Shown piece by piece: positions 1-9,322 of a stretch of 9,322 nt of DNA. Position numbers and translations under genes: made by a program. The stretch is from a virus (taxonomy: Duplodnaviria > Heunggongvirae > Uroviricota > Caudoviricetes), in the IMG/VR virus record IMGVR_UViG_2574180220_000002; one strand, written 5' to 3'. Positions within the stretch are counted from its first letter, which is position 1, and each line of letters begins with the position of its first letter. Under the pieces are notes generated by a model. That model was not told the origin of the DNA, ran no database searches, and saw only the letters and a program-made list of their open reading frames with translations.

Positions 1-861
1 ATGAGATTCAGCACCCCATTACGGTATCCTGGTGGTAAAGGTAAATTAACTAACTATCTATCAAAGATCATTATGATCAATGGTTTAGATGGTTGCGAAT
101 ATGTTGAGCCGTATGCTGGTGGTGCTGGAGTAGCCATTAATTTACTTTTGTCTGGGAAAGCATCACGTATACATTTAAACGATCTTAATAACGCCATTTT
201 TTGTTTTTGGCGGTCAATTCTAGAAGAAACTGATCAGTTTTGCCAATTAATTGAAAAAACCCCTGTGAATATGGATGAATGGTATAAGAATAAAAATATC
301 ATTAGTAATCAATGTGATTATTCCTCATTGGAAGTTGGATTCGCTACGTTTTTCCTTAATCGAACAAATCGGTCAGGAATTTTGTTAGGTGGTGTAATTG
401 GTGGTAAGGAACAAAATGGAAAATGGAAAATAGATGCTCGATTTAATAAGGTTGATTTAGTAAACCGTATTAAGGTAATAGCAGACCGTAAATCTGATAT
501 TTGTATCTATAACCAAGATGCTAAATCATTCTTGCAAAATACTGTAACTGGATTCCCATTAAAAACATTGCTTTATCTTGACCCTCCATATTATGTTAAA
601 GGAAAGGGCTTGTATCAAAACCATTATAGTCATGATGATCATGTCGAAATTGCTAATATTATAAAATCTAATTCAAAGCATCCATGGATTGTATCTTACG
701 ATAATACTGTTGAAATAAACAACATGTACACTGGTCTTAGAAAAATTGAGTACGGTATCAGCTATAGTGCTCAATCTAGGTACCAAGGGCCAGAAGTAAT
801 CTTTTTTTGTGATAGCATTTCTATTCCTGATGATATGGATCCTACAAGAGTCAAATTATAG
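1..861 (+). CDS. DNA adenine (N6) methyltransferase, Dam/D12 family
   Basis: 286-aa ORF with ATG at position 1. Contains N-terminal RYPGGK, EPYAGGAGV (AdoMet-binding motif I-like), FFLNRTNRSG and the catalytic DPPY tetrapeptide (LYLDPPYYV), in the order typical of Dam/DpnM/T4 Dam. Visibly much more AT-rich than the rest of the window (by eye, not computed). The 3' end overlaps the convergent integrase gene by 11 bp. Confidence 0.85.
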   Translation: MRFSTPLRYPGGKGKLTNYLSKIIMINGLDGCEYVEPYAGGAGVAINLLLSGKASRIHLNDLNNAIFCFWRSILEETDQFCQLIEKTPVNMDEWYKNKNIISNQCDYSSLEVGFATFFLNRTNRSGILLGGVIGGKEQNGKWKIDARFNKVDLVNRIKVIADRKSDICIYNQDAKSFLQNTVTGFPLKTLLYLDPPYYVKGKGLYQNHYSHDDHVEIANIIKSNSKHPWIVSYDNTVEINNMYTGLRKIEYGISYSAQSRYQGPEVIFFCDSISIPDDMDPTRVKL

Positions 862-1981
862 CTATTTTACTCCAATCTTTCCCTCGGTCATCATGGTAGC
901 GATCTGTTTGCTGCTGGGTTTTATGGCCCAGTAGCTTTCTAGTATCGATCCCCTGTTCTTTGTACAGACGTTCAGATAAAGACCGTTGTTCATGGAATGT
1001 GGCAGGTGAACCTTTCCCCCAATCAATTCCTGCTAAATCTCTTGCTTTACTGAAATTCATAGTCAAGGTATTGGCTTTAACCTGTGCGCCGCGTTCAGCC
1101 TGTGAAGTAGTACGAAAAAAATGTACAAGGTATGGGCTGACAGCATAGTCACGGCAACGGGCTACTACATCGCGCAAACTCCAGTTAATCGCATTGAGGC
1201 GCAGAGAAAGCGGGATGGCGATTTTGCTCCCGGTTTTTTCCTGGATGACGTGAAGATGATCATCCCAAATATCGCTAAATTTCATACGTGAGATATCACC
1301 TAACCGTTGGCCGGTAACCAGTGCTAACAGCATGGCATTCCCCATATAACGATGACTGGCATCTGCAATATCAAAGATTTTTTGCCACTCTTCAAGATTT
1401 AACCGTTGTCGGGTAATTTTTCTTCTGGGTTGTTTGGTTGCCAGTGCAGGATTATAGCCCGGAGGGACTTCCCCATAGTGTTGTGCCTCCTTGAATACAT
1501 CAATTAGAACGGAGCGGACTACTTGCGCCATCCTCGGTTGCCCGGCAGTGATATACTCGTCAAGCAATTGTGCTATATCCCTTACATCAACTGATGAAAT
1601 TAATTTCATTCCTGCTCGTTCCCTGAGCAAGGATACTGGTTTGGCTTTCTGTTTATAGGTGTTGAGCTTTATATCGCCACTTTCCAGTCTGTCATCCTGG
1701 ATTGCTTGATAGCGATCTAACCAGGTTGACGTTGTGATTGCTTTTCCTTTGCTGGTTGCGATCCTGTCACTGATAGCCAGAATCTGCCGGGTTCTTTGCT
1801 CAGCCAGGCGTGAATTTGCCTCAGTGGCAATAGCAATGGCTTCAGCTTCGTTTGTGCCTAAAGAATGAAACTTCCCGGTCACTGGATGTTTATATCGCCA
1901 ATAGACTTTATTTACTTTTCTGCTATAAAGCGGATACAAGTTCGGGACTGAAACATTATTTTTACGTGGTCTGGCTGCCAT
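851..1981 (-). CDS. int: Tyrosine site-specific integrase, lambda Int family
   Basis: 376-aa ORF starting at ATG (1981..1979). Collinear with lambda Int from the N-terminal arm-binding region to the catalytic C-terminus: TGQRLGDI (Arg), HEQRSLSERLY (His-x-x-Arg), LLGHK...DRYHDD (His and the Tyr nucleophile). Appears intact. Confidence 0.95.
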   Translation of the reverse strand: MAARPRKNNVSVPNLYPLYSRKVNKVYWRYKHPVTGKFHSLGTNEAEAIAIATEANSRLAEQRTRQILAISDRIATSKGKAITTSTWLDRYQAIQDDRLESGDIKLNTYKQKAKPVSLLRERAGMKLISSVDVRDIAQLLDEYITAGQPRMAQVVRSVLIDVFKEAQHYGEVPPGYNPALATKQPRRKITRQRLNLEEWQKIFDIADASHRYMGNAMLLALVTGQRLGDISRMKFSDIWDDHLHVIQEKTGSKIAIPLSLRLNAINWSLRDVVARCRDYAVSPYLVHFFRTTSQAERGAQVKANTLTMNFSKARDLAGIDWGKGSPATFHEQRSLSERLYKEQGIDTRKLLGHKTQQQTDRYHDDRGKDWSKIAII

Positions 1982-2222
1982 TACCTAAAATCCTTTGTAG
2001 AATAATAGAATCACTTTTCTTTATTACTGGAGTAACTAACTCCCCAACTAACTCTGCATCCTCACGCACTCGCCATAGTCGACCTTGTTTCATTGCCGGT
2101 GGACAAAATAAATTCTGCTTAGCATAACGACGTAATGTGGACACACTTGGAGGATTACTCCTAAATTTTTCCGCAGCCCATTCCTCAAGTGTCAGCATTT
2201 GAAGCATTTTTGATAACCTCAT
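1962..2222 (-). CDS. xis: Excisionase (Xis, winged-helix DNA-binding family)
   Basis: Small ORF immediately upstream of int, overlapping its start by 20 nt, the usual int-xis arrangement. Product contains LTLEEWAAEKF...PSVSTLRRYAKQ...GRLWRVREDAE, typical of phage excisionases. Start is ambiguous: ATG at 2222 has no SD, while the in-frame ATG at 2207 (MLQMLTLEEW) has AGG about 9 nt upstream. Confidence 0.7.
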   Translation of the reverse strand: MRLSKMLQMLTLEEWAAEKFRSNPPSVSTLRRYAKQNLFCPPAMKQGRLWRVREDAELVGELVTPVIKKSDSIILQRILGNGSQTT

Positions 2223-2250: not shown

Positions 2251-2799
2251 TTAATTTCGCTGTCTGGATTGTTTATGTATCTTATGCAGCTCTTTAAAGC
2301 GTTCCATAAACATCCCGTAGGCATGGCCCGGTGCCAGTGGAATCACGTTGAACATCTCTGTTGCCGGGATACCTTCCAGCACAGGCCAGAAAGAGCCATC
2401 ATCAAGCCCGAGATCGCGGCGTTCGGTTGCCAGCATGATGAGATCGGCATATTTCACGGGCGTACTCATAACTGGGGGTAACCCGTATTTCTCACGGATT
2501 ACGGCGTCTATTTTTTCTTCCATTTGTTTATAGTCAGGAAGAAGGCGTTTCAGTGGTGCGGGAATGTCCTGGCAATACGCTTCTGTTGCATCATGCATTA
2601 ACGCTTCAAAAGCAAATTCCTGCGGCACCAACTGGCTGCAAAGAACCGCATGTTGGGCGACGCTGTAGAAGTGCGAAAGATGACCGGCAAAGCGACAGAT
2701 ATTTGAAAGGGAAACCGCGATATCGTTAATATCGATGTCGTCTTTATTTATCCTGTCATAATAAAAATGCTTCCCGGAAAAAGTTTTAATAAATGACAT
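2251..2799 (-). CDS. yfdR: HD-domain phosphohydrolase (YfdR/YfbR-like 5'-deoxynucleotidase family)
   Basis: Conserved H...HD metal-binding signature (HLSHFYSVAQHA ... LMHDATEAY). The track ORF begins at GTG 2826; I prefer ATG at 2799 (MSFIKTF), which has GGAG 6 nt upstream, giving about 182 aa. Size and position, downstream of a DUF2303 gene and upstream of xis/int, match YfdR of CPS-53-type prophages (from memory). Confidence 0.8.
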   Translation of the reverse strand: MSFIKTFSGKHFYYDRINKDDIDINDIAVSLSNICRFAGHLSHFYSVAQHAVLCSQLVPQEFAFEALMHDATEAYCQDIPAPLKRLLPDYKQMEEKIDAVIREKYGLPPVMSTPVKYADLIMLATERRDLGLDDGSFWPVLEGIPATEMFNVIPLAPGHAYGMFMERFKELHKIHKQSRQRN

Positions 2800-2890
2800 T
2801 TTGTTCTCCACGTATATGCGCTGCACCGCGCTGAATTTTGGTTAAAGAAAACCCTCGCCATCAGGCGATTATTGAGTTAATTACGTTTCC

Positions 2891-2916
2891 ATAAATGCCC
2901 CCGCAGGGGCATTTGC
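2891..2916 (-). terminator. Stable GC-rich hairpin between the DUF2303 gene and the HD gene; candidate intra-operon intrinsic terminator
   Basis: Perfect 9-bp stem AAATGCCCC (2893-2901) / GGGGCATTT (2906-2914) with 4-nt loop. On the minus strand the hairpin runs into UUUAU. It starts 12 nt after the stop of the upstream gene (2927). Confidence 0.4.
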
Positions 2917-2926
2917 AGTAATGAAA

Positions 2927-3751
2927 TCAGGCGGTGAAAGTACCAATAAGGGTTTCTACTTTGCTGTCTTTGAATTTTTCAACAAGCAGATCACGAAATT
3001 CGTTAGCCATTTCTTCCTGTACTGCTTCCAGCTGAATAATGCGCAGAACCAGTACAGGGCGATCACCAGTGATAATGCTGAGGCGTAATTTAAACGGACG
3101 TTCTTTCAGGCCTTCAAACGGAACGCATTTAAACTCAAATGCTACTGGCATAATGTCTTTGGTTTTCGCTTCGACAGACTCCATCAGAGAGCGTTTGCCG
3201 CTGAAGTCATTGTCTTCAAAATCAGCGGTATGGTTTGCTTCAATCGTGATTTTACGGACCGCCGCAGCCGCTTTTGTTGCCTGAATGGCGTCACCATTAG
3301 CATCAAAGCCCACAAGGTAGTCGGCCCAGTCTTCAATCCATTCTGCCAGTGACTTCTGGGAGTTACGCTCGCCGTTAACAGACAACAGAGCAGAGAACGG
3401 TGCTGTCTTTTTCAGTTTGAGAGTGGCGGTGTTATCTGCGTGACCTGGTTCATCAATAGTACCCAGGTTAAGCACACTGACGGCACGCATATTATCGGCA
3501 TCGATAAAGCAGCGGGTGCCTTCATCTGCAAGATCTTTAGAATAACGGGTAAAGTCATCGATGCTGGCAGTGGAAAGTGCACCACGGAAACGGAAGCGAT
3601 TTAAATTAAATTTTTCCAGATCATGAATGCGGAAATTCTCAGGCAATGCCACAGCATCGGCACCAATCTTACTGATAATTTCATTAACACCCTGAGCAGA
3701 AATAAGGGCATGGATTTGATTAATTGCGGTTGCGTCTAAGTTCTGAGACAT
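2927..3751 (-). CDS. yfdQ: DUF2303-family phage protein (YfdQ-like), function unknown
   Basis: 274-aa ORF with ATG at 3751 and GAGGA 6 nt upstream. Coding-like composition. Length and position (between the 120-aa gene and the HD gene) match YfdQ of CPS-53-type prophages, recalled from memory and not verified. Confidence 0.75.
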
Positions 3752-3816
3752 AATAAGTCCTCACTATATAAAGATATTCAGTGATGAGATAAATAATCAG
3801 TTAATTAAGAACGATA

Positions 3817-4179
3817 TTAATGACCTGCTGCGCGTAGTTTTCCGTCAGGTTCACCGGCAAGAGTCAGTAATTGTCCCTGGTCTTCCTGCAGAATAGTCAG
3901 GCGACCACCGCGATTGACATACATCGGTGTTTCGGTGGTGTCTTCTTCGGAAATTTTCCCGCGGTTAGTCGGGCGAACATATGAGAGTTTGTGTTTGATT
4001 TTCACACGGTTCTCATCAAATGGTTCGATTTCCAGGTTGAGCGAGACCTTACCTTTGGTTTTCGTGTTCATCACACCGGAAGCGACTTCACTGAGAACTG
4101 CGCCGATTTTGGTTTCAAATACGCCGCCGTCCAGCTCCCCGATAAATGCCTGCACATCAGTACTGCGTTCGCTAGCCAT
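3817..4179 (-). CDS. Hypothetical early-left phage protein, about 120 aa (YfdP-like by position and size)
   Basis: The track ORF (3817..4365) begins at TTG, and its first 62 codons are low-complexity (R/C/S/G-rich) and cross a structured non-coding element. ATG at 4179 is preceded by GGGGAG 7 nt upstream and gives MASERSTDVQAF..., 120 aa; ATG at 4197 is an alternative. No recognisable catalytic motif. Confidence 0.6.
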   Translation of the reverse strand: MASERSTDVQAFIGELDGGVFETKIGAVLSEVASGVMNTKTKGKVSLNLEIEPFDENRVKIKHKLSYVRPTNRGKISEEDTTETPMYVNRGGRLTILQEDQGQLLTLAGEPDGKLRAAGH

Positions 4180-4227
4180 TTTGCTGCTCCCCATCATATC
4201 GACCCTGCAAGGTCGGTTGGTTTCTCC

Positions 4228-4327
4228 ACAAAACAGAGAAGAACACCTGCGGTGGCAGCCGCCCGGATGGATTGGGTTATGAGCCCGTCGTCCGGTGATG
4301 CTCTTCTCTGTTTTGTAAAAAGAGCGG
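4228..4327 (-). promoter_or_regulatory. boxA-like motif followed by a long structured hairpin in the leader of the early-left operon (candidate nut/put-type antitermination element or structured 5' UTR)
   Basis: Minus strand reads CGCTCTTTTTACA (4326->4314), resembling boxA (lambda nut CGCTCTTA; rrn TGCTCTTTAACA). It is followed by a perfect 15-bp inverted repeat, ACAAAACAGAGAAGA (4228-4242) / TCTTCTCTGTTTTGT (4302-4316), enclosing 59 nt with nested stems (CCGGA 4263-4267 / TCCGG 4291-4295; GCGG 4249-4252 / CCGC 4259-4262). Lies about 50 nt upstream of the 120-aa gene start. Confidence 0.35.
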
Positions 4328-4860
4328 TACCTGCCGGAAGCAAGTGTACAAACTGGTACCGCCAAAGCAGTGGCTGTTGTGGTGACCGGTGCTGATCTCC
4401 GGCTTGCGGTTATTTCAGACTCTCACGGGCGTTTAATTGCCCCGCCGAACAGCTCTTTTCCGCAATAGCTGCAATGTCTTTCGCGCATCAGTCTGCGCAT
4501 TCACCACAACGCTGAGAGCACTTAGCCAGTTACGGCACCACACTTTGTCGCGGTTCCATAAATGCCCTCATCGTTGCACCCTGGTCTCTTCCCAGGCGTC
4601 AAACCGAATCGCCACGCTGGTTAGGCGTCTTATCAGCATCATCATTGACTTGCACATTCCGGCTACCTAGTTTGTTTGCTCGAGCAAGGAGTGGATTGTC
4701 CCCTTTAACGTCACCAGACCGCTAACGACGCATGTGCCATACGCCGTGTTACAACCAAATTTTGTTAGTACCTTGTTTGTTTGTCTGGAAAGAAAGATAA
4801 AATGAAGTTGCGTATTATGCAAGTGTTTTTGTTGCGAGATATGCAATTTAAAGGGTGATG

Positions 4861-4881
4861 AAAAGCCACCTTTGGGTGGCT
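4861..4881 (-). terminator. Candidate intrinsic terminator downstream of the cI-like gene
   Basis: Stem AGCCACC (4864-4870) / GGTGGCT (4875-4881) with loop TTTG. On the minus strand it is followed by only UUUC, a short U-tract. Lies about 20 bp after the repressor stop (4902-4904). Confidence 0.4.
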
Positions 4882-4901
4882 AATTGATGAGGAGGTAAGG
4901 G

Positions 4902-5594
4902 TTAATTGTGTCGCTTAAGGGTTTGTGACTGGCTGATTAAGACCTTTCCAAAGACCATAAACCGGTGTTCATTTTCGCTGGTAATTCCCCATTCACGGTA
5001 AATCTGGTTATCAGAAATCACCAGTAGTTTGTCAGGTATCATTTGCAGTCGTTTGACATAAATTTTATCATCAAAACCAAATACATAGATACCATCTCCA
5101 TCAAACTGATTGATACTGACATCAACGAAGATGAGATCTCCTGGCTCAATGGTTGGACACATACTGTCCCCACGAACGTTGATAACTTTAATGTGATTGG
5201 CTGGCCGTCCGCCAAACATCGATACAGCATTATCAGTTCTGTATTCAATGGCATGAATCACATCAATGACATCACCGCCCTGGATAAGGCCATTTCCCGC
5301 ACTGGCACTGACATCCAGCATTTCAATACGGAATACATCCTTCACCTGCGCAACATCCTCACTAATACTGTTTTTACATACAGTATTACTTTTGACGTCT
5401 GAGGTAAAGAGATCAGCAATATCAACACCTAAGCTCCTGGCAATATTACTCAGGGCTTGTTCAGTGAATTGTTTCTGCTTACCTGTTTCCAGGCGTGAGA
5501 TATTCGCCGCATCCACTCCTATTGCTTCAGCGAGATCGGCGATTTTCATGTTCTTCGCCTGGCGAAGTTGTCTGACTCGGTTTCCTATGTTCAT
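4902..5594 (-). CDS. cI: CI-type phage repressor (N-terminal XRE HTH, C-terminal S24 LexA-like autopeptidase)
   Basis: 230 aa. HTH: RVRQLRQAKNMKIADLAEAIGVDAANISRLETGK. Candidate Ala-Gly cleavage site in SASAGNG. S24 catalytic Ser in GDSMCP and Lys in YVKRL. Divergent from a cro-like gene across an operator-rich 97-bp region. Confidence 0.9.
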   Translation of the reverse strand: MNIGNRVRQLRQAKNMKIADLAEAIGVDAANISRLETGKQKQFTEQALSNIARSLGVDIADLFTSDVKSNTVCKNSISEDVAQVKDVFRIEMLDVSASAGNGLIQGGDVIDVIHAIEYRTDNAVSMFGGRPANHIKVINVRGDSMCPTIEPGDLIFVDVSINQFDGDGIYVFGFDDKIYVKRLQMIPDKLLVISDNQIYREWGITSENEHRFMVFGKVLISQSQTLKRHN

Positions 5595-5691
5595 GCGTTT
5601 ATTACATTTCTTTATTGCGCGTTAAGCAAATCAACTTGCGCAAAATATTTGCGTGAAATAATATGCTTATCACGCAATATGTGGAGGTAAT
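5595..5691. promoter_or_regulatory. Divergent cI/cro control region with repeated operator half-sites and candidate back-to-back promoters
   Basis: TTGCG/CGCAA half-sites recur as inverted repeats: TTGC-N7-GCAA (5615-5629), CGCAAA-ATA-TTTGCG (5639-5653), TTGCGTGA-N13-TCACGCAA (5649-5677). Candidate rightward promoter: -35 TTGCGC (5636-5641), 17 bp, -10 TAATAT (5659-5664), then GGAGG (5683-5687) and cro ATG at 5692. Candidate leftward promoter on the minus strand: -35 TTGCTT (5629-5624), 17 bp, -10 TGTAAT (5606-5601), 6 nt, then the A of the cI ATG, suggesting a leaderless cI mRNA. Confidence 0.55.
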
Positions 5692-5916
5692 ATGCAATCA
5701 CCATTACGGAATGTGCGTAAGGCGCACGGATTTACTTTGCAGCATGTTGCTGCTGGCGTTCAGGTCAATCCAGCGACGCTGAGTCGTATTGAAAGACTGG
5801 AACAAATTCCATCTATCGATCTTGCAGAACGTCTGGCCAATTTTTTTAAGGATGAAATCAGCGAAATGCAGATTCTTTATCGTATTTCAGGGATGCTCGT
5901 GCCGAACTGGGTATAA
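5692..5916 (+). CDS. cro: Cro-like XRE-family HTH regulator
   Basis: 74-aa ORF with GGAGG SD. HTH: LRNVRKAHGFTLQHVAAGVQVNPATLSRIE. Divergent from the cI-like gene. The C-terminal tail (from about residue 58) overlaps an out-of-frame HTH-coding segment, so the true C-terminus is uncertain. Confidence 0.7.
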   Translation: MQSPLRNVRKAHGFTLQHVAAGVQVNPATLSRIERLEQIPSIDLAERLANFFKDEISEMQILYRISGMLVPNWV

Positions 5917-5954: not shown

Positions 5955-8686
<2,732 letters not shown>

Positions 8687-8687
<1 letters not shown>

Positions 8688-9322
8688 TGGAATTCAGAAT
8701 GAGTGAACAACCACGGACCATAAAAATTTATAATCTGCTGGCCGGAACTAATGAATTTATTGGTGAAGGTGACGCATATATTCCGCCTCATACAGGTCTG
8801 CCAGCAAACAGTACCTATATTGCACCGCCAGATATTCCGGCTGGCTTCGTGGCTGTTTTCAACAGTGATGAGTCATCGTGGCATCTCGTTGAAGATCATC
8901 GGGGTAAAACGGTTTATGACGTGGCTTCCGGCGACGCGTTATTTATTTCTGAACTCGGCTCATTACCGGAAAATGTTACCTGGTTATCGCCGGAAGGGGA
9001 GTTTCAGAAGTGGAACGGCACAGCCTGGGTGAAAGATGCAGAAGCAGAAAAACTGTTCCGGATCCGGGAGGCGGAAGAAACAAAAAACAGCCTGATGCAG
9101 GTAGCCAGTGAGCATATTGCGCCACTTCAGGATGCTGTAGATCTGGAAATCGCAACGGAGGAAGAAACCTCATTGCTGGAAGCCTGGAAAAAGTATCGGG
9201 TGTTGCTGAACCGTGTTGATACATCAACTGCACCTGATATTGAGTGGCCTGCAACCCCTGTTATGGATAATCGTTCCTGTTGTAGCCACAGTCACGTCAT
9301 ATACAAGAACTTGCTGGCCTAA
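8687..9322 (+). CDS. tfa: Tail fibre assembly protein (Tfa family chaperone)
   Basis: 211 aa, starting [54 protein letters not shown]..., the conserved Tfa N-terminus of lambdoid/Rac/e14-type prophages. Translationally coupled to stf through the ATAATGG overlap. The last ~17 residues ([18 protein letters not shown]) look like a non-canonical extension. Confidence 0.88.

Follow-up and report, generated by a model that had tools for sequence, protein, structure and literature searches.

What does a cassette of three small genes do between the repressor and the integrase of a decayed prophage, and does it serve the phage or the host? We examined this question for a prophage remnant in a stretch of DNA of 9,322 nucleotides (hereafter, the window). 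A preliminary description, made from the sequence alone, proposed that positions 2251-4179 hold a yfdP-Q-R-like module for host takeover or exclusion, kept because of selection on the host.

The window encodes a known cassette

Three co-oriented genes had been proposed, and we find open reading frames exactly there, all on the minus strand:

2251-2799, minus strand: yfdR, predicted HD-domain 5'-deoxynucleotidase, 182 amino acids
2927-3751, minus strand: yfdQ, DUF2303 protein, 274 amino acids
3817-4179, minus strand: yfdP, 120 amino acids, family PF27127 / PHROG 204

Each gene has an intact reading frame with a good Shine-Dalgarno sequence. The proteins are nearly identical (BLASTP) to those of E. 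coli K-12 MG1655: 119/120 residues (99%) for YfdP, 270/274 (99%) for YfdQ, and 167/176 (95%) for YfdR. The gene order is that of the K-12 prophage remnant CPS-53, and near-identical genes carry the names yfdP, yfdQ, and yfdR in RefSeq (PGAP). The proposed likeness to yfdP-Q-R was therefore correct in both identity and order, and the alternative that these proteins are unrelated to the YfdP, YfdQ, and YfdR families can be dismissed. In short, this is an intact copy of a known cassette and is not new.

Two of the start codons differ from those of the mechanical reading frames. For yfdR, the mechanical frame reaches a GTG at 2826, and the gene has an ATG start with the Shine-Dalgarno sequence GGAGAA. 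For yfdP, the mechanical frame extends to 4365, but all 27 of the aligned homologs begin at the methionine at 4179 or within a few residues of it, so we placed the start there. The spacers are 65 nt (yfdP-yfdQ) and 127 nt (yfdQ-yfdR).

The cassette is flanked by a cI-like repressor on one side and by xis and int on the other; the prophage is lambdoid, has suffered deletions, and sits at the icd (e14) site:

851-1981, minus strand: intE
1962-2222, minus strand: xis
4807-4846, no strand assigned: two operator-like 16-mers, GTTGCGTATTATGCAA and GTTGCGAGATATGCAA, 24 nt apart (direct-repeat family D1)
4902-5594: cI-like S24/HTH repressor
5692-5916: cro-like gene

All three cassette genes, xis, and int are on the minus strand. 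The proposed early-left location is thus borne out: the repressor and its operator-like repeats are followed by the trio, xis, and int. The slot had been described more narrowly as N-to-int, and here the position between repressor and int is right but the window contains no homolog of N. The stretch of 720 nt that separates yfdP from the repressor is conserved at the nucleotide level and not at the protein level. We considered a hidden N-like gene at 4345-4900, but the tblastx matches were short, in inconsistent frames, and on both strands.

Beyond cro are a truncated N6_N4 methylase, a C-terminal fragment of the tail protein J, a tail fibre gene, and a tfa gene. There are no head, lysis, or replication genes in the 9,322 bases. 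The claim that all morphogenesis genes were lost fits the head genes, but these tail remnants are still present. An ATPase upstream of the methylase was considered as component A of PD-Lambda-5, but it matched only generic ABC-ATPase defence models.

The pair of operator-like repeats is immediately downstream of the repressor gene, and a third copy (5614-5629) is in the cI-cro spacer. The cassette has the layout of a lambdoid pL operon, with co-oriented genes between the repressor and operators on one side and xis-int on the other. Positions 4807-4846 are probably the oL/pL region that drives it. A scan for the sigma-70 consensus called no promoter at 4807-4846, so the assignment of pL comes from the lambdoid architecture.

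The yfdQ-yfdR spacer contains a pair of hairpins:

2855-2911, minus strand: two terminator-like hairpins, AAAUGCCCCUGCGGGGGCAUUUAU and UCGCCUGAUGGCGA then GGGUUUUCUUU

The terminator scan reported one site in this spacer, and the 127 nt fold at -39.8 kcal/mol (z = -3.3); the hairpins may act as terminators. A candidate match of the spacer to STnc100 was rejected as below threshold (22.7 bits, as compared to a gathering score of 47; E = 0.12).

Besides gene order, the window shares its spacers with CPS-53 (also known as KpLE1), and the two are 96.6% identical at the nucleotide level over 2291-4198. CPS-53, however, is at argW instead of icd, and its cassette continues with yfdS and yfdT; the window lacks these genes and the torI-type xis, and xis and int directly follow yfdR. 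Conversely, the window has a repressor, operator-like repeats, and a structured leader RNA (described below) upstream of yfdP, all of which K-12 has lost; for the leader RNA, we conclude this because our covariance model finds no match there. Phage ST64B has a repressor and a long untranslated leader, then yfdP, yfdQ, and yfdR, and after these more accessory genes and xis-int. Related cassettes are found in the phages phiNP, LLS, SfV, SfIV, mEp460, and Stx2a/Stx2c, whose YfdQ proteins are 52-99% identical to the window's. All of these are complete phages and carry extra early-left genes (Ea22-like, DUF262, exonuclease), while the prophage in the window is a remnant in which nothing but the trio separates the leader RNA from xis.

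yfdP and yfdQ are an invariant pair

The cassette is common: we found the block in 3,022 of 5,426 complete genomes of E. coli (56%), and the literature already describes the cluster as common in the early-left slot of lambdoid phages. The same alleles occur in viable phages, namely SfV, SfIV, mEp460, and Stx2 phages.

In every locus where adjacency could be tested, yfdP was directly upstream of yfdQ. This includes 69/69 genomic loci from about 45 genera and 85/85 viral loci of the Vibrio and Pseudomonas types. Six reference or distant loci (ST64B, VvAW1, pAN, Tabio, Mystique, and Hahella) have the same arrangement; these span phages of Salmonella, Vibrio, Pseudomonas, Xanthomonas, and Acinetobacter, as well as Hahella itself. 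yfdR was present in just 58 of 71 genomic loci and 35 of 87 viral loci. The correlations between distance matrices agree with this pattern (r = 0.80 for YfdP-YfdQ, 0.54 for YfdQ-YfdR, and 0.44 for YfdP-YfdR). yfdP and yfdQ are an invariant, co-evolving adjacent pair in phages of Gammaproteobacteria, and yfdR is a facultative third gene that recombines more freely. The co-occurrence anticipated for the trio therefore holds for the first two genes and not for yfdR, and the trio is not a functional or evolutionary unit.

Apparent fusions of yfdP and yfdQ in 20 loci of the Pseudomonas type proved to be artefacts of long stop-free frames in high-GC DNA. In those loci, yfdP is a separate reading frame and no segment carries both domains. 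A scan of viral contigs with the Acinetobacter-type YfdQ gave no match.

Several neighbors of the cassette are involved in DNA metabolism. A gene for single-stranded DNA-binding protein (SSB) comes next downstream in Proteus and Hahella; in VvAW1, it comes after one small reading frame. Other neighbors are a DEDD exonuclease (Sodalis), a recombinase with an exonuclease and SSB (MET23-P3), and RecT/YqaJ (JC1). In phages such as the CP2-like Xanthomonas phages, the pair lies among early DNA-metabolism genes, with no integrase or repressor annotated in the regions that we saw. This argues that the pair has a role in lytic growth.

These observations bear on whether the cassette is a superinfection-exclusion or anti-phage defence module that is expressed by the prophage and benefits the lysogen. 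The cassette does occupy an accessory slot of lambdoid phages. Also, CPS-53 at argW and the window at icd are independent remnants whose flanks differ (only 2291-4198 is common to both), and each has kept it; a preprint reports that production of YfdQ or YfdM controls plaque appearance of phage SW1. But none of the 5,027 models in PADLOC-DB 2.0 corresponds to YfdP, YfdQ, or YfdR (E up to 0.1), and neither the CP2-like neighborhoods nor the alleles shared with viable phages fit an exclusion function. Furthermore, the cassette is downstream of repressor-type operators and is probably silent in lysogens. We consider exclusion very unlikely.

Retention in a remnant had also been taken as a sign of selection on the host. 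The cassette is under purifying selection (dN/dS of 0.04-0.08, about 0.05). Given the alleles in viable phages and the presence of the block in over half of E. coli genomes, selection at the level of the phage, with recent decay of this prophage, is sufficient to account for its state. Both the exclusion reading and the host-selection reading are unsupported.

Searches give no relatives of known function for YfdQ and YfdP

YfdQ matches DUF2303 (PF10065) over nearly its full length (E = 8.5e-92; residues 7-272 align to positions 2-269 of the 269 in the profile) and also PHROG 210, whose function is unassigned (E = 2.9e-119). The family is broad, with 1,803 clusters at 50% identity. Among the best 150 matches, nearly all of the full-length members have about 250-300 amino acids and none are fusions. 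Across 124 diverse members, 19 residues are nearly invariant.

A structure for the family has already been solved: YfdQ matches chain C of PDB 9O7M ("YfdQ Protein", E = 1.3e-44). The entry contains 36 chains of YfdQ from a CP2-like phage, which points to a large homo-oligomer. The entry is apparently unpublished, and a literature search for its code found no citing paper. A cryo-EM study of the CP2-like phage PhiXacm4-11 was considered as the source, but it reports other PDB codes and does not mention this protein.

YfdP matches PHROG 204 (E = 1.2e-49), its homologs carry PF27127, and its gene lies directly upstream of the DUF2303 gene; sequence and position together place it in the family. 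Its predicted structure comprises a core, made up of a helix and a three-strand sheet, and a C-terminal tail; the tail is conserved and is modeled with low confidence.

Structure prediction had been suggested as a way forward. AlphaFold2 models were obtained for both proteins (pLDDT of 78 for YfdQ and 72 for YfdP, with residues 91-105 of YfdP below 50), but neither gave an informative fold match. Similarly, a profile of the 124 diverse DUF2303 members, searched against PDB sequences and Pfam, hit only 9O7M and DUF2303 itself. As the preliminary description said, no mechanism has been assigned to either protein, and we found no demonstration of function for YfdP or YfdQ in the literature that we searched.

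The neighboring genes raise the possibility that YfdP and YfdQ form an unrecognized recombination or repair module, of the annealase or end-protection type, which replaces Red or Erf in phages that lack Rec genes. In LLS- and ST64B-type phages without known Rec genes, the cassette sits in the slot of the Rec module. SSB and exonuclease genes are nearby, the oligomeric state is like that of annealases, and a yfdQ deletion mutant is weakly sensitive to MMS (cited in PMC4776307). On the other hand, the cassette coexists with complete Rec modules in ArgO145, JC1 (RecT and YqaJ), and MET23-P3 (recombinase, exonuclease, and SSB). We also found no similarity in Pfam or in fold to RecT/Red-beta, Erf, Rad52/Sak, Sak4, or Gam, and no likeness of the cassette to the annealases, exonucleases, or RecBCD inhibitors of known phage recombination modules, Abc2 among them. 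A module of this kind seems improbable. Finally, the DUF2303 protein gp10 of phage JC1 has been detected in virions by mass spectrometry, which would fit a role other than that of a replication or repair factor.

YfdR and the initiation of replication

The H..HD..D signature of HD-domain phosphohydrolases is present in YfdR (H50, H69-D70, and D119), and YfdR matches PHROG 318, "deoxyribonucleoside 5' monophosphate phosphatase" (E = 1.6e-108). It is related to PDB 2gz4 (Atu1052; E = 7e-14), with the HD motif inside the alignment. Together with 95% identity to K-12 YfdR, this upholds the proposed assignment as an HD 5'-deoxynucleotidase. YfdR scores just below the cut-offs for YfbR-like (25.0 bits versus 25.9) and HD_3 in Pfam, and far below the cut-off for the NCBIfam equivalog of YfbR (20.5 bits versus 122), which suggests that it belongs to a divergent branch. 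The signature is shared with E. coli YfbR and with Dmp of phage T5. Dmp acts in host takeover by T5 as a pre-early enzyme, removing the phosphate from dNMPs released from host DNA. Binding to DnaA is known for K-12 YfdR but not for Dmp or YfbR.

K-12 YfdR is a weak HD-type 5'-dNMP phosphatase, with affinities for nucleotides much below those of YfbR, and it binds domain I of DnaA at Phe46, in competition with DiaA and DnaB (PMC4776307). The preliminary statement that YfdR interacts with DnaA and inhibits initiation is thus confirmed. The phosphatase and DnaA-binding activities are known for the K-12 protein only; the copy in the window, with 9 substitutions across 176 aligned residues, may share them.

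The inhibition of replication has a further requirement. [quoted passage not shown] The window lacks this minimal set: searches with K-12 YfdS and YfdT (tblastn) found nothing better than chance (E above 2). Without these two genes, the trio in the window is not expected to reproduce the published block of initiation. Noguchi and Katayama (2016) noted that the overexpression phenotype is possibly an artefact, that loss of yfdQRST from K-12 causes no phenotype in replication, and that none of YfdQ, YfdS, and YfdT showed strong affinity for YfdR or DnaA (PMC4776307). Stress phenotypes are reported for deletions of yfdQ and yfdS in K-12, including weak sensitivity of the yfdQ mutant to H2O2 as well as to MMS (cited in PMC4776307).

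Do these early proteins instead neutralize host immunity? YfdR might act on nucleotide signals or on intermediates of depleted pools, and YfdP and YfdQ might sequester an effector or DNA ends. Early, promoter-proximal expression, the variable and mosaic presence of yfdR, and the wide spread of the family in temperate and other phages would be consistent with counter-defence, and a large homo-oligomer could serve as a sponge. But neither experiments nor homology connect the cassette to a known anti-defence family; the strict conservation of YfdQ in length and sequence would be unusual for fast-evolving anti-defence proteins; and the sole biochemical datum points to DnaA. We think that counter-defence is quite unlikely.

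Another possibility is that the cassette is inert in its present host, never expressed and intact only because the decay is recent. The prophage is heavily deleted, an intact repressor adjoins the operator-like sites, and deleting the K-12 genes did not affect replication. Against this, the three reading frames are intact, with good Shine-Dalgarno sequences and low dN/dS; the SOS response would cause cleavage of the S24 repressor and hence expression of the cassette; and K-12 deletions have the stress phenotypes just mentioned. Inert cargo strikes us as unlikely.

A conserved structured RNA precedes yfdP

Just outside of the region first described is another conserved element:

4203-4345, minus strand: leader RNA, conserved and structured, about 140 nt long, with its end some 25 nt before the ATG of yfdP

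In this RNA, two hairpins sit inside a closing helix, which has about 22 pairs in the consensus and 25 bp in the window's own fold. The minimum free energy is -56.6 kcal/mol (z = -6.5). The leader is 80-93% identical at the nucleotide level across genera whose YfdP and YfdQ are only 55-68% identical. In the alignment, 97.6% of cells are paired and 12 pairs show compensatory changes; none of 500 shuffles reached this level of pairing, and slid controls were 40-61% paired. With a covariance model, we found the leader at the matching position in most loci from Enterobacterales, and in 62 phage records. It has no match in Rfam. A covariation-supported RNA thus precedes yfdP-yfdQ in Enterobacterales.

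The leader is in a place like that of put in HK022 or the RNase III hairpin of the lambda N leader, between pL and the first gene. Phages with this leader have no recognizable N, and terminator-like hairpins are found downstream in the operon. But put consists of two stems and lacks a closing helix (PMC9378689), unlike the leader with its long closing helix around two hairpins, and searches of the HK022 immunity region with the covariance model and with an 18-nt motif were empty. We rejected identity with put. As a conjecture, the leader might act in antitermination or be processed by RNase III.

Proposed role of the cassette

Our best explanation overall, which we would put at about an even chance, is that this known cassette comprises the promoter-proximal, pL-type genes of a deleted lambdoid prophage and serves lytic growth of the phage, rather than exclusion or the benefit of the lysogen. 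The adjacent cI-like repressor, when active, would keep the cassette silent; upon induction or infection, the cassette would be transcribed through the leader RNA. YfdP and YfdQ would form a large oligomeric accessory factor that helps to replicate or repair phage DNA: YfdQ would make up the oligomer, and YfdP would partner with it via its conserved flexible tail. A physical interaction between them is suggested by gene linkage. Where present, YfdR may divert the host by damping DnaA-dependent initiation and by dephosphorylating dNMPs. Takeover of the host, aimed at replication, is a reasonable but unproven part of this explanation.

A stronger version, which we hold tentatively and with some doubt, is that YfdP-YfdQ is an obligate two-protein early machine without a relative of known function, in which YfdP docks by its tail onto a very large homo-oligomer of YfdQ, in phages ranging from lambdoid phages to those of Vibrio, Pseudomonas, Xanthomonas, and Acinetobacter. 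In Enterobacterales, the pair would be controlled by the undescribed leader RNA, possibly as an antiterminator or processing site where N is lacking. If so, the pair would represent a new class of phage factor for DNA metabolism or host takeover, and the leader would represent a new family of regulatory RNA.

The window itself shows nothing unusual: the module is common, and this is a further decayed copy. Future work should take the yfdP-yfdQ pair as its unit, rather than the trio or the yfdQRST set. Over half of the complete genomes of E. coli carry the cassette, as do Shiga-toxin and serotype-converting phages, although only one of the three proteins has an assigned function. If YfdP and YfdQ modulate replication together with the DnaA-binding YfdR, then prophage induction could alter the control of host replication and the yield of toxin-encoding phages.

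The yfdPQR cassette and its prophage

The window is the remnant of a lambdoid prophage. In a genome that is nearly identical, this prophage adjoins icd at the e14 attachment site, and RefSeq uses the gene names intE and xisE.

Features of the prophage remnant
5594-4902, minus: cI-like repressor (HTH and S24 peptidase domains)
Between repressor and yfdP: about 720 nt without protein-coding conservation
4179-3817, minus: yfdP
3751-2927, minus: yfdQ
Between yfdQ and yfdR, minus: spacer of 127 nt
2799-2251, minus: yfdR
2222-1962, minus: xis
1981-851, minus: int
Right of the repressor: cro-like gene, N-terminally truncated N6_N4 methylase, C-terminal fragment of tail protein J, tail fibre gene, and tfa

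Since the right flank of the repressor holds only this gene set, the replication, lysis, and head genes have been deleted. A probable deletion scar lies at 5955-7065 (plus strand), where the N6_N4 methylase, which lacks its N-terminal part (only profile positions 132-220 are present), abuts the J fragment (Ig_J domains). This scar would explain why the genes for replication, lysis, and the head, and most of those for the tail, are missing. In CPS-53, the K-12 prophage that carries the reference yfd genes, yfdM lies beside yfdL in a similar but non-homologous arrangement. Within the tail-fibre-assembly gene, Rfam RF02111 (IS009) has a full-length match at 9030-9228 (plus strand; 229.5 bits, with a gathering score of 117).

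At the other end, a D12-class adenine methylase (1-861, plus strand) matches the PADLOC defence model PD-Lambda-5_B (E = 1.9e-121) and overlaps the stop of int at 851-861. Upstream of it, the near-identical genome encodes a 569-amino-acid ABC/OLD-type AAA ATPase, whose only matches were to generic models of defence ATPases (HEC-04, AriA, PtuA, and GajA). Together, the methylase and the ATPase may represent defence-type cargo, placed as a pair between icd and the int end of the prophage.

The boundaries of yfdP, yfdQ, and yfdR in the preliminary description agree with the RefSeq genes of a 99.9%-identical genome, and its assignment to the YfdP, YfdQ, and YfdR families holds: 119/120, 270/274, and 167/176 residues, respectively, are the same as in K-12 MG1655. 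DUF2303 from Pfam covers YfdQ end to end (E = 8.5e-92). YfdR has the H..HD..D signature (H50, H69-D70, and D119) and can be aligned to Atu1052, an HD protein (2gz4; E = 7e-14). The RefSeq annotation of the cassette is correct. We rejected longer mechanical open reading frames (191 and 182 amino acids) as real genes; in all 27 aligned homologs of YfdP, the start coincides with the Met at 4179 or lies only a few residues away.

The cassette itself is known biology, and this is one more copy. The 2.15-kb block is found in 3,022 of 5,426 complete E. coli genomes (median one copy, up to seven), and a gene for YfdQ is carried by 184 deposited phage genomes, among them SfV, SfIV, mEp460, cdtI, ST64B, phiNP, and many Stx2a and Stx2c phages. 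Because homology to CPS-53 is limited to 2291-4198 (96.6%), the cassette is a sharply bounded mosaic block that is carried by different prophages at different attachment sites.

Noguchi and Katayama isolated yfdQRST as a multicopy suppressor of over-initiation in hda-185 (PMC4776307). [quoted passage not shown] As yfdS and yfdT are absent from the window, this trio is not expected to produce the one phenotype that has been published. Purified YfdR binds DnaA in a Phe46-dependent manner and competes moderately with DiaA and DnaB (PMC4776307), so what the preliminary description says of YfdR and DnaA is accurate. Replication was unaffected when the genes were deleted, and the authors concede that the observed effect might be an overexpression artefact (PMC4776307). 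[quoted passage not shown] Elsewhere, a preprint reports that YfdQ and YfdM play a role in whether plaques of phage SW1 appear, and the DUF2303 protein gp10 was detected by mass spectrometry in virions of Burkholderia phage JC1.

The yfdP-yfdQ pair is the conserved unit

We fetched 71 genomic loci with relatives of YfdQ (41-99% identity, about 45 genera), another 87 viral loci that belong to the lineages of Vibrio VvAW1 and Pseudomonas pAN, and annotated stretches from six phages. A homolog of YfdP is encoded directly upstream of yfdQ in 69 of the 71 genomic loci (of the other two, one runs into a contig end and one has a truncated yfdQ) and in all 85 viral loci that have upstream sequence. 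The two genes are also adjacent in Salmonella ST64B, Vibrio VvAW1, Pseudomonas pAN, Xanthomonas Tabio, Hahella, and Acinetobacter Mystique, whose YfdQ is only 26% identical. In contrast, yfdR is present in 58/71 genomic and 35/87 viral loci, and other genes sometimes intervene between yfdQ and yfdR. Pairwise distance matrices are correlated more strongly for YfdP and YfdQ (r = 0.80) than for YfdQ and YfdR (0.54) or YfdP and YfdR (0.44).

Where yfdR is missing, other genes follow yfdQ: a gene for single-stranded DNA-binding protein (SSB) with a DDDIPF-type tail, either directly (Proteus and Hahella) or after one small open reading frame (Vibrio phage VvAW1), or a DEDD (DnaQ-like) exonuclease (Sodalis). 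These SSB and exonuclease genes are at 6887-7384, 6866-7276, 6214-6738, and 6945-7562 of the fetched loci L062, L071, L157, and L024. Thus, of the proposed three-gene association, the linkage of yfdP to yfdQ stands and yfdR as a fixed third gene does not. The pair is the conserved unit, and yfdR is a frequent but exchangeable companion. The strictness of the pairing and the optional status of yfdR are new here.

Structural clues for YfdP and YfdQ

DUF2303 proteins fall into 1,803 clusters at 50% identity. Among the best 150 matches, almost every full-length member has about 250-300 amino acids, and none is a domain fusion. Nineteen positions of YfdQ are nearly invariant, including P102, H104, E140, D141, and R166. 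PDB 9O7M ("YfdQ Protein") is a solved structure with 36 chains of one sequence, which is about 40% identical to YfdQ from the window (E = 1.3e-44) and 94-99% identical to YfdQ of CP2-like Xanthomonas/Xylella phages. We found no publication describing it in the literature that we searched, so all that we conclude is that the family assembles into a large homo-oligomer or was modelled in that way. The pointer to this structure is new.

AlphaFold models from homolog alignments had pLDDT of 78 (YfdQ) and 72 (YfdP). YfdP is modelled as one long helix and a three-stranded sheet; its C-terminal 30 residues are strongly conserved and predicted with low confidence, a pattern typical of partner-binding tails, which this segment may be. 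None of the three proteins matched a PADLOC model, and the PHROGs entry for YfdP and YfdQ is "unknown function."

A structured leader RNA and the probable regulation of the cassette

Upstream of yfdP we identified a conserved RNA of about 140 nt (4203-4345, minus strand) that ends about 25 nt before the start codon. Its nucleotide identity is 80-93% in Mixta, Citrobacter, Pseudocitrobacter, Klebsiella, Kosakonia, and Salmonella ST64B, where the flanking proteins are 55-68% identical. Two hairpins sit inside a closing helix, which has about 22 pairs in the consensus and 25 bp when the window's sequence is folded by itself (minimum free energy -56.6 kcal/mol, z = -6.5). In an alignment of 29 sequences, 97.6% of cells were paired and 12 pairs had compensatory changes; none of 500 shuffles reached these values, and sliding the register gave 40-61% paired and 2-6 compensatory pairs. 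With a covariance model, most loci from Enterobacterales, some of them outside the training set, gave a match in the same place; K-12, HK022, and the distant phages gave none. It has no match in Rfam, and its architecture differs from that of put, the antiterminator RNA of HK022. Of the deposited phage genomes, 62 contain this leader, none with an RNA annotation for it; its recognition is new.

At its 5' base, CGCTCTTTTTACAA bears a possible resemblance to a boxA element. We found no homolog of N, and the yfdQ-yfdR spacer contains two terminator-like hairpins (2855-2911, minus strand), which suggest that expression of yfdR depends on readthrough. Given the hairpins and the lack of an N homolog, a reasonable conjecture is that the leader acts in cis in antitermination or RNase III processing.

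A 16-mer with a TTGC-N7-GCAA dyad has three copies flanking the repressor gene. The copies at 4807-4822 and 4831-4846, downstream of the gene, are probably oL, and the copy at 5614-5629, in the cI-cro spacer, is probably oR. These operator-like sites suggest that the cassette probably stays silent for as long as the S24 repressor is functional.

Selection and proposed role

It had been proposed that retention of the cassette in a remnant is a sign of selection on the host. This was not supported. All three genes have dN/dS of 0.04-0.08 relative to other E. coli copies, and since the compared alleles circulate in viable phages, purifying selection at the level of the phage followed by recent decay explains the intact reading frames. 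That the block is kept in two unrelated remnants is suggestive of host selection, but not decisive.

The yfdP-yfdQ pair is found within early DNA-metabolism clusters, beside SSB, exonuclease, and recombinase genes, both in temperate phages and in phages whose inspected regions have neither an integrase nor a repressor annotated. Complete recombination modules co-occur with the pair in ArgO145, JC1, and MET23-P3. Because of this context and co-occurrence, we favor an accessory part for the pair in replicating or repairing phage DNA while the phage grows lytically, rather than in recombination proper or in protection of the lysogen. Where present, YfdR would add functions directed at the host: the binding of DnaA and the dephosphorylation of dNMPs. 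Of the suggested "host takeover or exclusion," exclusion is not supported, while the early DNA-metabolism context and the binding of YfdR to DnaA argue, with modest confidence, for host takeover.
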